Below the pieces are notes generated by a model that was not told the DNA's origin, did not search any database, and worked only from the letters and a program-made list of their open reading frames with translations. 64,000 bases of DNA. It comes from Octopus vulgaris (taxonomy: Eukaryota). Made by a program: the position numbers and the translations under genes. Numbering within the stretch: the first letter of the stretch is position 1; each line of letters opens with the position of its first letter. This document shows, piece after piece, positions 306 to 63,636 of the stretch. The stretch covers positions 19,096,001 through 19,160,000 of the forward strand of contig OX597841.1 of the NCBI GenBank assembly GCA_951406725.2, written 5' to 3'.

Positions 306-362
306 TGTATCACTGACGAAGAGATGGCTGTTATGAGCTAACCCTGAAATCGGTCCGATATG
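306..362 (+). ncRNA. Type I hammerhead ribozyme-like motif (slightly decayed)
   Basis: TGTATC(A) CTGACGA AGAGATGGCT-gttatg-AGCTAACCCT GAAAT CG GTC (C)GATATG: stem I, core, stem II, GAAA, near-palindromic stem III, GUC triplet. Confidence 0.7.
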
Positions 363-537
363 GATATAATGGAATTTTTTAGAAATTTCTGTCGACCTTT
401 TTTCGAGTAGCGTGCGTATTGTGAAAAAATTATATGGTTAATGGACAATATGTCCAATTTTTCGGCATACATACACACATACATACATATATATATATAT
501 ATATATATATATATATATATATATATATATATATATG

Positions 538-945
538 ATAAGAGTAAATAATGTCTTTAATGCTTTTTAAAAAAACCAACAATTATTTACTGGTAGATTT
601 CGGCATGTAAATATAACCATTAACGGTAGGAACTTCTATAAAGTTCAGTATATATATATTGTATATAAATAAAAGGGGCAGGCAACAGGTTGCTTAGCCG
701 CAAACTGAAAAAATTAGAAATAGCAGTCAGAGACTGTTTATTTCTATTTTCTACAAATGAGACTCCACATACGACATATCCCTGTAATTCACATTTGCAA
801 AACAGAAGAAAGAAATAACGAAAACAAAGTCTGACAGTCATTTACGAACGCGTTTCTAATTTAGAAATATATTTTTCATATCTTTCATCAGCGTAATTTT
901 TTCGGCATGCGGCTAAGCAACCTATTGCCTGCCTCTTTTATATTT
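538..945 (-). mobile_element. Non-autonomous Penelope-like element with hammerhead and short terminal inversion, between (TA)n tracts
   Basis: 671-702 is the reverse complement of 908-940; homologous copies at ~32240-32807 and (diverged) ~1865-2052; hammerhead at 842-896. Confidence 0.65.
842..896 (-). ncRNA. Type I hammerhead ribozyme-like motif
   Basis: Minus strand TTACG CTGATGA AAGATATG-aaaaa-TATATTT ctaaatta GAAAC GC GTT CGTAA: 5-bp stem I TTACG/CGTAA, canonical core, palindromic ACGCGT stem III. Confidence 0.75.
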
Positions 946-986
946 ATATATATATATATATATATATATATATATATATATATATA

Positions 987-1150
987 CAGGGAGAGTTTAC
1001 AAAAAAAAAACAAAAGACAAAGACAGGTGGTGTACAAAACAAACAGATGTATTAGTATAACGCTCAGGAATACAAAAAGTCCTTTACGTTTCGAGCCTAC
1101 GCTCTTCCACAGAAAGGGACACAGAAAAACCAAGGAAAGAAACAAGGAGA
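987..1150 (-). mobile_element. Short repeat carrying the CUGUGGA-core hammerhead variant (motif 1079-1120)
   Basis: Minus strand CTTT CTGTGGA A GAGC gtag GCTC GAAAC GTA AAGG; homologous to 2115-2302 and 35730-35937. Confidence 0.7.
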
Positions 1151-1579
1151 GACCTCCTCGAGGAACATGAAGACGCAGGCTGAAAAGCAGAGCATTTTCC
1201 AATCGAAGTCGGATGTAGAGGGTTTGTTGGACACAGTGTGAGACGACTGTTGTCATCGCAAGGCCTAACTCATCGTAAAGTCAATACCACCATGACCGAT
1301 ATCCAATCTACAGTGGAGAAGGCTAGCCACTGGATTTGGTTAAAAAGAGACGATGAGCGATGGCTAGAAGTATATTGAGCTTTATTTGATAACCAGCTGA
1401 TCTAGCAAGCGGGGCCTCATATCACAGAGGGGGGTGGGGCGGTGCGCATTGATGCCCTCGAGAGGTAGGCCCCGAAACGGCGCACATTCTCTCCTGATGA
1501 CCCCATACACTTGCTGGCTTCCGGTATGCGGAGTTTTTGACTGGTAGCACTTGCATGTGCAAGTTGTTTACAAGACATG
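1151..1579 (+). mobile_element. 3' end of a Hero-like (restriction-like endonuclease) non-LTR retrotransposon, 5'-truncated, one in-frame stop
   Basis: Frame from 1151 reads DLLEEHEDAG*KAEHFPIEVGCRGFVGHSVRRLLSSQGL...VEKASHWIWLKRDDERWLEVY* (stop 1376-1378). PIEVGCRGF and ASxWIWLKR match the Hero-clade C-terminus as recalled. 3' UTR contains ccgaaac...ctgatga and ends at (TA)n. Confidence 0.8.
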
Positions 1580-1864
1580 TATATATATATATATATATAT
1601 ATATATATATATATATATATATATATATATATATATATATATATATATATTTAGAAATGATTTTTTGTCCCTCTTAGCGTGTGGCATCTATGTATAATAA
1701 TGCCCTCTATATATAAATTAATATGTTCAATAAGAAAGAATTATTTTCGAAATTTTTCTCTTATGAGGTTTTTCACGCTATCTACCTGATAATTTCTTAT
1801 TAAGATTCCTTATTAAGAAGTTGTCCTTAATTGCTATATATATATATATATATATATATTATAA

Positions 1865-2052
1865 CAATGAGGGTCTTTGCAACAGGCTGCTAGACCACAT
1901 ACCGAAAGTATTAGGAATAGCAGCCAGACGACTGTTATTTCTTTTACAACAAAAATATGTCCCACAGACAATAGTATTTGTAACTCACTATGGCAAAAAA
2001 ACGAAGAAAAACAACGAAATCAAACAGTCTCCGGTTAATTATGGACGCATGA
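1865..2052 (-). mobile_element. Diverged relative of the 538-945 element, between (TA)n tracts
   Basis: gcaacaggctgctagaccacataccgaaagtattaggaatagcagccagacgactgtt aligns to gcaacaggttgcttagccgcaaactgaaaaaattagaaatagcagtcagagactgtt. Confidence 0.6.
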
Positions 2053-2114
2053 TATATATATATATATATATATATATATATATATATATATATATATATA
2101 CATATACATATATT

Positions 2115-60610: not shown

Positions 60611-61500
60611 TAGCTGTGTGGTAAGTAGCTTGCTTCCCAACCACATGGCTCCAGGTTCAGTCCCACTGCGTGGCATCTTGGGCAAGTGTCTTCTGCTGTA
60701 GCCTTGTGAGTGGATTTAGTAGACAGAAACTGAAAGAAGCCCATTGTTTGTGCGTGTGTATATATATATATATATATATATTTATATAAATATATATATA
60801 TATATAAATATAAATATATATATATTTATATAAATATATATACATATGTACATATATATGTATATATATGTATATATATATATATAAATATAAATATATA
60901 TATATATATATATATATGTATATATATATGTATGTGTGTGTGTGTATATATATATATATATATATATATATAGACATATACATATATATATATACATATA
61001 TATATATATTGATATATACATATATATATACGTATATATACATACATACATACATACATATATATATATATATTTATATATATATATATGTACATATATA
61101 TATATACGTAGTTGATCAGTTTGTCTACGTGGGAAGCACTATTACTAGATATAGCAATTTCGATGATGAAATTCCATATAGAATTAGGAAAGCAAGTGTT
61201 GCTTATATATATATATATTCATATATATATATATATATATATATATATATATATATATATATATAGATAGATATATTTATGTAATCGTGTTTCTGTGTTT
61301 GTCGCACCACCATCACTTGACAATCAATGTTGGTGTGTTTACATCCCCATAACATTAACGGTTCAGCAAAAGAGATTGATAGAGTAAGTACTAGGATTAC
61401 AAAGAATAAGTGCTGGGGTCGATTTGTTCGACTAAAGCTGTTGCTCCAGCATGGCCACAGTCAGATAACAGAAACAATTAAAAGAAACAAAAGAAAAAGG
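60611..61500 (+). mobile_element. Family B SINE with an expanded internal (TA)n containing an RTE RT fragment (61108-61203)
   Basis: Head 60611-60743, tail ~61290-61500; insert reads [32 protein letters not shown] (FxYLGS..DxEIxxRIxKA motif). Confidence 0.7.
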
Positions 61501-62180
61501 GATAAGAAGAATCGTTAGCACCCCAGGCAAAATGCCCTTGTCGTATTTCACCCGTCTTTGTGTTCTGAGATCAAATTCTGCCATGGTTGACTTTGCCTTT
61601 CATCCTATCCAGGGTCAATAAAATAAGTACCAGTCGATGTAATCCACTTATTCCCCTTCGGCTGAAGTTGCTGGCTTTGAGCCAAAATTTGAAATCCTTA
61701 TTTTGGACTAAGAACTTTGCTATGTGACCACATGGTTCCAGGTTCAATCCCAGTGTGTGGCACCTTGACTAATTGTCTTCTGCTATAGCCTCAGGCAGAC
61801 CAAGACGTGCAAGTGGATTTAGTTAATGGAAACTTAAAAAAGCCCATTGTATGTATGTGTGTATATATATATACATATATATTCTTTTATGCTTTTATTC
61901 TTTTATTTGTTTTAGTCATTTGACTGGAGTCATGCTAGTGCACCGCCTTTAGTTGAAACAAATTGACCCAGGAATTTGTAAACCTACTACTTATTCTATC
62001 GGTCTCTTTTGCCAAACAACTAAGTTATGGGGCCATAAACGCACCAGCAGCGGTTCTTAAGCAAAGGTGGTGAGGACAACCATGGACATACAAACACTCA
62101 CTCACACACGCACACACAATTATTCGGTAGCAATGTTAAAACTCCGGCCATCGGAAAAAATGCATCTTTTCCAATGGCCG

Positions 62181-62240
62181 GATAACTGAAGAGATGCTGG
62201 CTTGGATTTCCACCTCAGCATCCGAACTCGGAGTTTTATC
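62181..62240 (+). ncRNA. Hammerhead-like motif (one A of GAAA missing), preceded by a GC-rich hairpin at 62144-62181
   Basis: GATAA CTGAAGA GATGCTG-loop-CAGCATC C GAA CTC G GAG TT TTATC. Confidence 0.65.
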
Positions 62241-62374
62241 ATGGCTACCAAATAATTGTTACATATTACATTTACAGATAAATTCCTCTATTTACATAAT
62301 ATCAAGATCTCTTTCATTCTTTTGTTGTCTTACCATTTCTATCAATATATATATATATATATATATATATATAT

Positions 62375-62955
62375 ATAATCCAGAAAATGGAGAACACCTC
62401 AGATCAACTAACAAATCAGTTGAAGCAGATCTATAGCTTATTGTTTAATACAAAACATTACATAACATTTATGTGACATAACAATTCTTACAGCCGTTTC
62501 TGCTTCTGATGCTAGTCAGTGCCTATGAAAGAATTGTGAAGATAATATTCTTCATCTTCATAGGATATTCGAACTAGAACATGGAGCTTCTTCAGAATGT
62601 AGTTAAAATATGATGATGAAGAATATTATCTTCACAGTTCTTTCATAGGCACTGACTAGCATCAGAAGCAGAAACGGCTGTAAGAATTGTTATGTCACAT
62701 AAATGTTATGTAATGTTTTGTATTAAATAATATGCTATAGATATGGTTCAACTGATTTGTTAGTTGATCTGAGGTTTTCTCCATTTTCTGGATTATCTAT
62801 ATTTGATTCCTGATAAACTTTCGTTTATTCTGTTGTTGCCTGTACTCTAAGAGCATAGTGTGCATGTATACCCATGGCCAGAGATAACACGGGTAACTGT
62901 TACCAATAGTATATACGGATATTTTATCCCTTAGTTGGTTATTATAACCACTAAC
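62375..62955. mobile_element. Fold-back Penelope-like element (arms 62375-62562 / 62609-62795) with a long-stem-II hammerhead at ~62484-62600 (-)
   Basis: ~187-bp inverted arms. Minus strand CTGAAGA A GCT..ATG..CTAG..CCTATGAAG.TGAAG aatattat CTTCA..CTTTCATAGG..CTAG.CAT..AGC A GAAAC GGCT GTA AGAAT. Confidence 0.8.
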
Positions 62956-62961
62956 ACTGCT

Positions 62962-63395
62962 TGACCGCGTGTGTACTGTTGGCGATTTTTTTCCCTCTGT
63001 CTCCCCTTCTCTGGATCTTTCCTTTTCCTATGTTTCTGATGAAGAGCTCCGCTCAAAACATAAAACCTTCCTTCTTCCCTCCCTTCCTGAGCGTCCAATA
63101 ATACTATATTTGTTCCACGTCCTCGCGTTGTTGTGTTTTCTCTTTGTGTTTTCATGTTTGGATTAACTTTATATATATATATATGTGTGTGTGTGTGTGT
63201 GTATATATATATATGTATGTATGTCTGTCTTCCCTTCTCTGGATCTTTCCTTCTCCTATGTTTCCGACGAAGAGCTCCACTCGAAACGTTAAACCCTCCT
63301 TCTTCCCTTCCTTCCTGAACGTCCAATAATACTATATTTGTTCCAGCTACTCGCGCTGTGTTTTCTCTTTGTGTTTTCATGTTTGGATTAACTTT
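62962..63395 (+). mobile_element. Two tandem copies of the CCGACGA hammerhead-variant family (motifs 63032-63066 and 63260-63294)
   Basis: GTTT CTGATGA A GAGC tcc GCTC AAAAC ATA AAAC and GTTT CCGACGA A GAGC tcc ACTC GAAAC GTT AAAC, each ending at (TA)n. Confidence 0.75.
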
Positions 63396-63511
63396 ATATA
63401 TATATATATATATGTGTGTCTATGTGTATATATATATGTATGTATGTATGTATGTATGTATGTATTTATGTATACATATATACATATATAAACACACATA
63501 CGCACACATTT

Positions 63512-63636
63512 GTTATTCTGAAGAGAGAATATTGACAGTGATTTTGAAGCTTTGGCGAGCTAAGCCGTCATCCGTTGAAGACTTAGCTGGTCAAAACTTC
63601 AAAGATACTGTCAATAATGTCCATGTTTAAGAATGA
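63512..63636 (+). other. ~87-nt imperfect hairpin (63530-63616) directly after CTGAAGA; probably a decayed long-stem-II hammerhead
   Basis: TATTGACAGTG/ATACTGTCAATA, TTTGAAG/CTTCAAA, TTTGGC/GTCAAA, AGCTAAG/CTTAGCT; no GAAA downstream. Confidence 0.5.

Follow-up and report, generated by a model that had tools for sequence, protein, structure and literature searches.

A 64,000-nucleotide (nt) stretch of the Octopus vulgaris genome (assembly GCA_951406725.2, contig OX597841.1, positions 19,096,001 to 19,160,000; hereafter the window) is rich in microsatellites, and among these lie many motifs that resemble hammerhead ribozymes. Which elements carry them? A first-pass annotation, made from the letters alone, had assigned the motifs to a dozen or more non-autonomous lineages of Penelope-like elements (PLEs) or retrozymes. 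We find that they are very probably the hammerheads of the 3′ pseudo-long terminal repeats (pseudo-LTRs) of endonuclease-positive (EN+) PLEs from several clades (Hydra, Neptune/Nematis), together with some short non-autonomous derivatives. The evidence thus supports the part of the earlier proposal that saw PLE-type type I hammerheads of many lineages, with a palindromic stem III suited to cleavage as dimers. It does not support the description of the lineages as non-autonomous elements or retrozymes, since two families trace to autonomous PLEs and a third has Hydra-type EN pieces at 2 of 20 loci.

Hammerhead motifs in the window

Homology to a library of 119 motifs identified 30 loci in the window, 4 of which were removed as low-complexity matches. 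The remaining 26, together with a probable motif at 306–363, agree with the earlier count of about 25 whole, half or decayed motifs, and all eight stretches cited in that count hold the motif ascribed to them. The same search of the reversed window returned 1 locus. A strict descriptor (stem I of at least 4 bp, exact CUGANGA, GAA, a perfect 6–12-nt palindrome, H and the second strand of stem I) has 4 matches in the window, compared to a mean of 0.005 in 200 local dinucleotide shuffles:

842–896, minus strand
5427–5474, minus strand
35420–35465, plus strand
38191–38233, plus strand

A relaxed descriptor gives 6 matches against 0.63 in the shuffles, so that the comparison with dinucleotide-shuffled controls that the annotation had proposed as a check yields a clear excess on both counts. 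The motif at 4581–4671 (minus strand) fits a canonical descriptor, with 1 match against 0.015 expected. Our initial descriptor demanded one paired base in stem II at a position where most motifs have A.A or U.U, and it missed most of them. Since the descriptor was adjusted after the motifs had been viewed, we added independent checks.

The type I core and stems I–III, with CUGANGA, GAAA and NUH in order, are complete in four window motifs and partial in the rest. Among the eight motifs previously listed as clearest, those at 4581, 5427, 35420 and 38191 are intact and the other four are damaged or weak: the 842 motif has an intact core and almost no stem II (−0.7 kcal/mol), stem I is broken in the 6031 motif, stem III is broken in the 30633 motif, and the 62181 motif is one A of GAAA short compared to its relatives. 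The 5427 and 6031 motifs are a local duplicate (96% identical), and several half motifs are the two arms of a single insertion. Rfam hammerhead models have no match in the window at gathering score, and the best 150 of 994 rows by E-value are almost all microsatellite-like microRNA models. The sole GAAACATATGT in the window (39511, minus strand) has no CUGANGA within 70 nt upstream. A CUGAAGA at 63518, within a foldback-like stretch (63431–63640), was recovered neither by the descriptors nor by homology.

The proposed association with microsatellites holds: for 24 loci, the median distance to (TA)6+ is 123 nt, compared to 279 nt for random non-repeat positions, and 87.5% of them (versus 53%) lie within 300 nt of such an array. 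This is observed against a microsatellite-rich background with 210 tandem-repeat rows. The window holds no PLE reading frame, and almost all of its long open reading frames (ORFs) are microsatellite translations. The hammerhead-bearing features are as follows, and families are named below after the window position of their motif.

306–363, plus: probable hammerhead with a CUGACGA core, an 11-nt palindromic stem III and a bulged stem I
538–964, minus: short PLE-type insertion between (TA)n arrays; hammerhead 842–896 with ACGCGU stem III and very weak stem II
1069–1128, minus: minimal hammerhead of the A6U family, with a CUGUNGA core, an extra A, GAGC stem II and ACGU stem III; further copies at 2153–2212 (plus) and 35799–35859 (plus, decayed)
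4384–4446, plus: minimal hammerhead of a mostly U4C family (CCGACGA in 9 of 15 copies examined); further copies at 39698–39759, 63017–63079 and 63245–63307 (all plus)
4550–4925, minus: 5′-truncated 3′ end of an autonomous PLE assigned to the Hydra clade; intact hammerhead 4581–4671
4926–5159, plus: inverted arm of the preceding insertion, with a half hammerhead from G5 and a 140-nt end tail
5221–5570, minus: 3′ end of a PLE that is older and probably of Hydra type, with the intact hammerhead 5427–5474
5961–6170, minus: local 96% duplicate of 5357–5565; hammerhead 6031–6078 with broken stem I
6372–6422, plus: hammerhead with a swapped tertiary pair, G3-C8 (GUGAACA core, 7-bp stem I, AAUAUU stem III)
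22771–22848, no strand: perfect 78-bp foldback of two half hammerheads; tail-out insertion, interrupted inside the motif
28228–28264, plus: 3′ half hammerhead (GAAA-CAGCUG-UA)
30633–30706, plus: decayed hammerhead; stem III palindrome lost, kept in a relative at locus L146
35369–35699, plus: young short element of about 310 nt in (TA)n, candidate non-autonomous PLE; intact hammerhead 35420–35465
38153–38397, plus: 5′-truncated 3′ end of an autonomous PLE of Neptune/Nematis type; intact hammerhead 38191–38233
43278–43576, no strand: two half hammerheads forming a foldback; their lineage is a relative of the 4581 family
56636–56848, minus: hammerhead-bearing 3′ end from the wider lineage of the 4581 family; ACGAUCGU stem III, stem I partly decayed
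58356–58412, minus: decayed hammerhead; C3 lost, ACAGCUGU stem III
62123–62253, plus: hammerhead 62181–62240 and a short inverted arm; one A of GAAA missing, intact relatives at L084 and L100
62441–62730, no strand: 285-bp foldback with a 3′ half hammerhead in each arm

The motif at 6372–6422 was missing from the earlier list. The stretch 256–393, around the probable motif at 306–363, is 75% identical to a hammerhead-bearing stretch of locus L062; immediately upstream of this motif lies a long inverted repeat (about 7–140 against 170–300; window 7–300). The insertion at 538–964 carries an inverted piece of itself at 894–964, and the 842 family has 2,081 first-look candidates in the genome, the best 40 of which, self excluded, are 85–95% identical.

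Parent elements elsewhere in the genome

The annotation had suggested extending the families in the 5′ direction toward ORFs with reverse transcriptase (RT) and GIY-YIG domains. We did this in the genome assembly (G000, 2.8 Gb; the window lies on its contig C28) and found parents for the 4581 and 38191 families. For the 4581 family, which has 1,423 first-look candidates, window segment 4550–4925 is 98.8% identical to the last 400 nt of an element at L046, where the motif is situated about 1,460 nt downstream of an 854-amino-acid (aa) frame, P0001. This frame bears DKT, CxCX5C, CxxC and CxH, and RWK is found in the frame that precedes it, before a premature stop. RWK, DKT, the CxCX5C linker, CxxC and CxH are marks of the Hydra clade (PMC8557442, section 11), and by eye P0001 resembles the Hydra proteins in the supplement of that paper. 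The endonuclease of the parent has 18,074 first-look candidates; the best 150 are 83–100% identical, and several of these sit in frames of 970–984 aa. As judged from these sequences, the 4581 family represents the 3′ ends of an apparently active Hydra-clade element that is young and abundant. The full element is about 4.6 kb long; its RT and EN are separated by an Asn-rich insert, and its 3′ untranslated region measures about 1.5 kb. Copies include the following:

L046, 270–5031
C19, 23219818
C2, 37618888
C6, 134012175

We fetched 20 loci of this family as the best matches to the 376-nt arm in the window. Their 5′ ends are scattered over about 3 kb, from about 1750 to 4620 of the L046 element, and the window copy retains the last 400 nt. 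Insertion into (TA)n is seen both in the window (flanks 4522–4549 and 5160–5220) and at the fetched loci. We considered 4550–5159 as a partial tandem and ruled this out, as it is an inverted pair.

The 38191 motif lies 487–600 nt after an RT or GIY-YIG frame in five distinct loci, and L077 has a classic inverted arm. In this frame the endonuclease is C-terminal and comes with a CX4CxxC linker and CCHH residues, which makes the parent element one of Neptune/Nematis type. The frames of L071 and L077 match GIY-YIG and also RVT_1, the latter just under the cut-off. A search of the genome with PF01541 gave 6,136 first-look candidates and many frames of 781 aa. These frames form a family that is 46% identical to the 38191-family frame and has a U3-A8 hammerhead 412–918 nt past the stop in nine distinct loci. 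Many copies (L071–L074, L081) retain the full 781-aa RT and GIY-YIG frame, and L072–L074 have an upstream frame of 333–479 aa which overlaps it by about 80 nt in another phase, suggesting a possible two-ORF or frameshift layout. Both families share with Neptune and Nematis PLEs the domain order (RT, CX2-5CxxC linker, GIY-YIG with CCHH), the DKG and GxKF motifs, a bias toward microsatellites and a hammerhead downstream of the frame. The 781-aa family is distinguished by its upstream ORF and U3-A8 hammerhead; for the 38191 family we keep both clades in the placement.

The 5427 family (3,110 first-look candidates; best 40 at 85–89% identity, self excluded) has variable 5′ ends that reach about 620 nt upstream. 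The Hydra-type linker and EN noted above occur upstream of the motif in L133 and in the inverted arm of L150, and this family is a probable 3′ end of an older, Hydra-type PLE. The 5427 and 6031 segments were also considered as a pseudo-LTR pair. This is not supported, as they are 96% identical to each other, compared to 85–89% to the family, and have an unrelated repeat between them. That dispersed repeat has two copies in the window, 5571–5961 and 31848–32230.

Copying of the elements

The copies have the organization of EN+ PLEs. RT and GIY-YIG are joined in one frame in the parents elsewhere in the genome and in none of the window copies, the hammerhead lies downstream of the frame in a 3′ pseudo-LTR, and the copies show 5′ truncation, an inverted arm and a one-sided tail. 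Inverted arms were found in 13 of 20 and 20 of 28 loci in two locus sets.

In the mechanism that we propose, a protein with RT and GIY-YIG domains would nick (TA)n DNA and prime reverse transcription at the 3′ end of the RNA. Priming at an endonuclease nick is established for PLEs (PMC4209133, PMC6765202), and the link of the target to (TA)n is shown here. Copying would mostly halt early, such that the last 100–600 nt are retained, hammerhead included; early-stop truncation is seen for two families. A second priming event would then add the inverted arm. The resulting tail-out foldbacks are observed, as are "half" motifs where the arm halts inside the ribozyme (4926, 22771–22848, 43434–43576 and 62441–62730), and the second priming is their presumed cause.

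The one-arm tail of 140 nt is informative about the template. In the window copy and in 15 of 19 further loci of the 4581 family, it is the same sequence as the opening 140 nt of the complete element. This suggests that the template would run from the 3′ end into a following element start, either by tandem read-through or as a circular RNA. In source elements, two hammerheads may swap strands, pair their palindromes into a long stem III and cut the precursor at NUH, as suggested by sequence, folding and published assays. Most genomic copies would be solitary and decay neutrally.

Short families and a candidate non-autonomous element

Among the short families, the 35420 family (1,360 first-look candidates; best copies 94–100% identical) stands apart. 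Across 38 distinct copies (from the best 30 of the 1,360 candidates), the shared sequence reaches about 45 nt upstream of the core and no further; beyond this limit we find the copy's own inverted arm, (TA)n or unrelated DNA. Among the loci examined, there is neither a coding frame linked to the family nor an autonomous partner that shares its 3′ end. From these features, the 35420 family looks like a non-autonomous element of about 310 nt, the best candidate of its kind. Its 5′ limit may correspond to an initiator or a 3′ splice site, which it resembles. In run X16, the summed contig depth of the 3′ part of the element (window 35510–35630) is up to about 30 times that of the hammerhead, which suggests that a far larger set of repeats may share this 3′ end, depth being a poor measure. 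Contigs of four runs, three merely guessed to be RNA, contain two opposite-strand joints and one 60-nt skip, show no back-joint at the cut site and are silent on expression.

It is possible, and somewhat less probable than the reverse, that most families are of this type, namely non-autonomous derivatives of PLEs that resemble short interspersed nuclear elements (SINEs), which are mobilised in trans and have a promoter of their own and a short, fixed length. The hard 5′ limit of the 35420 family and its lack of a linked frame fit this reading, as do the 30633, 62181, 6372 and 22763-type families, in which the longest shared upstream DNA among the copies inspected (5–11 each) is the copy's own inverted arm or (TA)n. 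However, two families trace to autonomous elements and a third probably does. Few copies of the remaining families were sampled, and even autonomous families seldom leave long copies (399.9 kb of sampled genome gave no PLE frame). Of the "dozen or more" non-autonomous lineages of the annotation, the 35420 family is the one for which a fixed short length is well supported, and neither the window nor the sampled loci showed a tandem retrozyme. That a subset of families are SINE-like derivatives is compatible with an origin from the pseudo-LTRs of EN+ PLEs.

The G3-C8 copy (window 6346–6566) lies outside microsatellites and has an identical 10-nt word at both ends, possibly a target-site duplication. 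Locus L151 (C2:16461500–16463800) contains decayed RT-like pieces of two kinds in 2.3 kb beside a decayed 58356-type hammerhead.

Ribozyme fold and core variants

The innermost pair of a fully palindromic stem III cannot form in a single hairpin. We analysed stem III in 110 motifs (fetched loci and window), grouped into 22 families, leaving the loop free. The self-complementarity that the annotation had noted is confirmed, since the innermost pair is Watson–Crick in 18 of 20 even-length families (p = 4e-8, a value that treats related, non-independent families as separate), as are 40 of the 45 free stem III pairs. At sites picked by the cores and the palindrome alone, stem I reaches at least 4 bp in 13 of 21 cases, compared to 0 of 161 in shuffles. 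Covariation support is between families: most have C-G as their tertiary 3–8 pair, the 781-aa family has U-A, and the 6372 family has G-C. When the four intact window motifs were co-folded, the dimer hammerhead came within 0–2.4 kcal/mol of the minimum, and the monomer lay 2–5 kcal/mol above its own. Together, these data are evidence for selection on a dimeric ribozyme fold, the folding part being a prediction.

The G3-C8 family (6372) has 1,533 pattern matches in the genome, with G3 and C8 in 100 of 100 among the matches listed. In the literature we found G3-C8 only as an engineered variant (PMC3884650); section 8 of PMC3088659 does not contain it, and neither does PMC6155905 by a term search. 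Lunse et al. may already include the G3-C8 and A6U core variants.

Weighing the assignment

Several points weigh against an assignment of the motifs to EN+ PLEs with working ribozymes. A Pfam search of P0001 gave no match, and its alignment to a Neptune-type frame is weak (E 0.027); its clade call therefore rests on motifs. Most window families (842, 6372, 30633, 62181 and the minimal families with A6U or U4C) could be linked to no frame, and tblastn with three PLE proteins found no match in the window or in the 399.9-kb sample. An association between the 62181 family and the L084 frame was dropped, the relatives of the family there being a separate tail-out insertion. With regard to the ribozyme itself, the A6U family has U6 in 10,831 genome matches and A6 in 180, and changes at A6 reduce activity (PMC3088659, section 8). 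In two families, most of the copies examined have U4C (9 of 15 and 5 of 7), and the wide spread of A6U or U4C families questions whether cleavage is needed. Furthermore, tail-out pairs set sense beside antisense, which makes a dimer impossible, and published PLE hammerheads cleave slowly even as dimers (PMC4209133).

Are the hammerheads then largely vestigial, or a mere structural or pairing signal, with cleavage unneeded for spread? The A6U numbers point in this direction, as does the 38191 family, where the 5 of 7 copies with U4C include frame-bearing ones, and Naiad PLEs spread without canonical hammerheads (PMC8557442). We nevertheless regard this as unlikely: whole families carry compensatory swaps of the 3–8 pair, and GAAA and NUH are kept, which argues for selection on the catalytic fold. 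Position 7 is freely variable in the A6U family, and the other positions are conserved.

Even less probable, in our view, are non-LTR retrozymes, in which tandem units are cut to monomers by the hammerhead, circularised and reinserted. Type I hammerheads, low GC content and a unit of about 300 nt would fit, the tails are compatible with a circular or tandem template, and in a preprint (10.64898/2026.07.22.740005) the pseudo-LTRs of PLEs are proposed as the source of retrozymes and solo monomers are described. Retrozymes resemble the octopus copies in being short, non-coding animal repeats with type I hammerheads that are probably PLE-derived (PMC7229834 and the same preprint). They are described there as head-to-tail arrays with circular RNAs, whereas the copies here are solitary or inverted tail-out, and neither the window nor 28 loci of the 35420 family showed a head-to-tail array of hammerhead units. 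Additionally, copies begin upstream and end downstream of the ribozyme rather than at the cut site.

There is no support for Naiad elements as the origin of the traced motifs, because every motif-linked frame has a C-terminal EN and Naiad combines an N-terminal EN with the lack of a canonical hammerhead. The untraced families could have been mobilised by Naiad. Links obtained via query N089 were ignored, as they come from a common short repeat inside the L084 frame.

Density in the genome

The annotation had put the density at roughly one motif per 2.5 kb. We took a systematic sample of 40 stretches of 10 kb at fixed coordinates (399.9 kb), which contains 64 homology loci (1 per 6 kb, low-complexity matches still included) and 17 high-scoring motifs, compared to 0.9 in 20 shuffles. 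Extrapolation of the 17 motifs gives about 113,000 genome-wide (Poisson range 63,000–184,000), or about 82,000 for perfect cores alone. A whole-genome pattern of exact cores, a 10–40-nt stem II and an AC..GT stem III has 90,046 matches, against 14,085 in a reversed control; it leaves out U3-A8, G3-C8, A6U, U4C, stems III closed by AT, and long stems II. Among the first 100 rows, 10 duplicate a locus, all of them on the minus strand, and doubling the plus-strand excess gives about 69,000. Intact-looking motifs thus number about 70,000–110,000, or about 1 per 25–40 kb. The earlier density holds locally if halves are counted and is too high for the genome, because halves, decayed copies and duplicates were counted in a window of above-average density.

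The sample also contains 7 copies of another very abundant family of minimal hammerheads, with a GGCUG stem II and a canonical core (L095, L096, L105 and pattern rows on C1), which has none in the window. In the axolotl, 126,247 motifs were reported (PMC7229834) in 28.21 Gb (preprint 10.64898/2026.07.22.740005), from which we derive about 4.5 per Mb, compared to about 25–40 per Mb here by different descriptors.

That the intact motifs are chance matches in AT-rich, repeat-rich DNA can be dismissed as practically impossible: loose descriptors do have a background (14,085 control matches; 32 bare CUGANGA in the window against about 20 expected), yet the counts are 4 against 0.005, 17 against 0.9, 1,728 against 1 and 90,046 against 14,085.

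Other repeats in the window

Three segments (3553–4039, 11638–12095 and 42439–42800) are made of 184-bp tandem units of a common short interspersed repeat, inside which no hammerhead was found. At 34030–34607 there are about three head-to-tail copies of a 174–182-bp unit that consists of a short repeat end and (TA)n. The stretches 3044–3490 and 40260–40660 are decayed, and by eye we take them to be mariner/Tc1 transposase-like remnants.

Relation to known elements

Previous work has described hammerheads in PLEs, their palindromic stem III, their cleavage as dimers and the targeting of (TA)n (PMC4209133, PMC8557442). The supplement of PMC8557442 (Craig et al. 2021) lists Hydra elements in (TA)n, one of them (Hydra-1_Obim) from Octopus bimaculoides; their hammerheads have long palindromic stems III and a basal U.U in stem II. 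By eye, a motif at C1:1328887 is near to the listed Hydra-1_oBim hammerhead. The 4581 family has in common with the Hydra clade, as described in that paper, DKT, RWK, CxCX5C, CxxC and CxH, insertion into (TA)n, a near-3′ hammerhead whose stem III is a long palindrome and whose stem II often has a basal U.U, an inverted 5′-truncated arm and a one-sided tail. It differs in that the clade is described there as "generally short (<3 kb)" and rare, whereas the element here is about 4.6 kb, with frames of 970–984 aa, and is young and abundant.

The hammerheads described by Cervera and de la Pena in 2014 (PMC4209133) are likewise type I, with a short stem I, an extra base after A9, a palindromic 15.2–16.2 plus loop 3 and a U3-A8 variant, and they are extremely varied within one genome. 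That paper also reports thousands of copies from truncated PLEs, most of them solitary, and inverted pairs 100–700 bp apart. In contrast to these, many octopus families have 6–12-nt palindromes and no G10.1-C11.1 (G-C in 11 of 22 families), the counts are about 10 times the 2,000–9,000 given there by other descriptors, and G3-C8 and A6U families go unmentioned in the part of that paper covered here. The small PLE hammerhead variants of Lunse, Weinberg and Breaker (RNA Biol 14:1499), as cited in PMC6765202, share a diminished palindromic stem III and dimer cleavage. Our literature search found no survey of cephalopod hammerheads beyond PMC8557442, leaving aside what Lunse et al. may contain on cephalopods.

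The feature is therefore real and dense, and of a known kind, since its arrangement has already been described, including in an octopus. Worth pursuing are its scale, the Hydra family with its long and abundant elements, the short derivative at 35420, and the families with G3-C8 and A6U cores. A 2026 annotation of octopus repeats (PMC13282606) records 31 PLE families with recent activity and 893 SINE families that it leaves unclassified, and its main text does not mention hammerheads; some of the 893 may be hammerhead-bearing PLE ends.

Speculatively, the genome would hold a natural library of about 100,000 hammerheads, in which the core has diversified and remained functional, including G3-C8 and, with over 10,000 copies, the A6U family. 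Together with stem I, the palindrome of stem III would act as a family-specific code for dimerisation in trans, by which RNAs, short non-autonomous ones included, cut only together with their own kind; we think it improbable that all of this is so. The role of the hammerhead in PLEs is called unclear in PMC8557442, which notes that hammerheads may merely parasitise the elements. The octopus combines young, intact autonomous elements of two clades and a short derivative with C3-G8, U3-A8, G3-C8, U4C and A6U families, and such a set allows a direct test of whether cleavage is required for retrotransposition.

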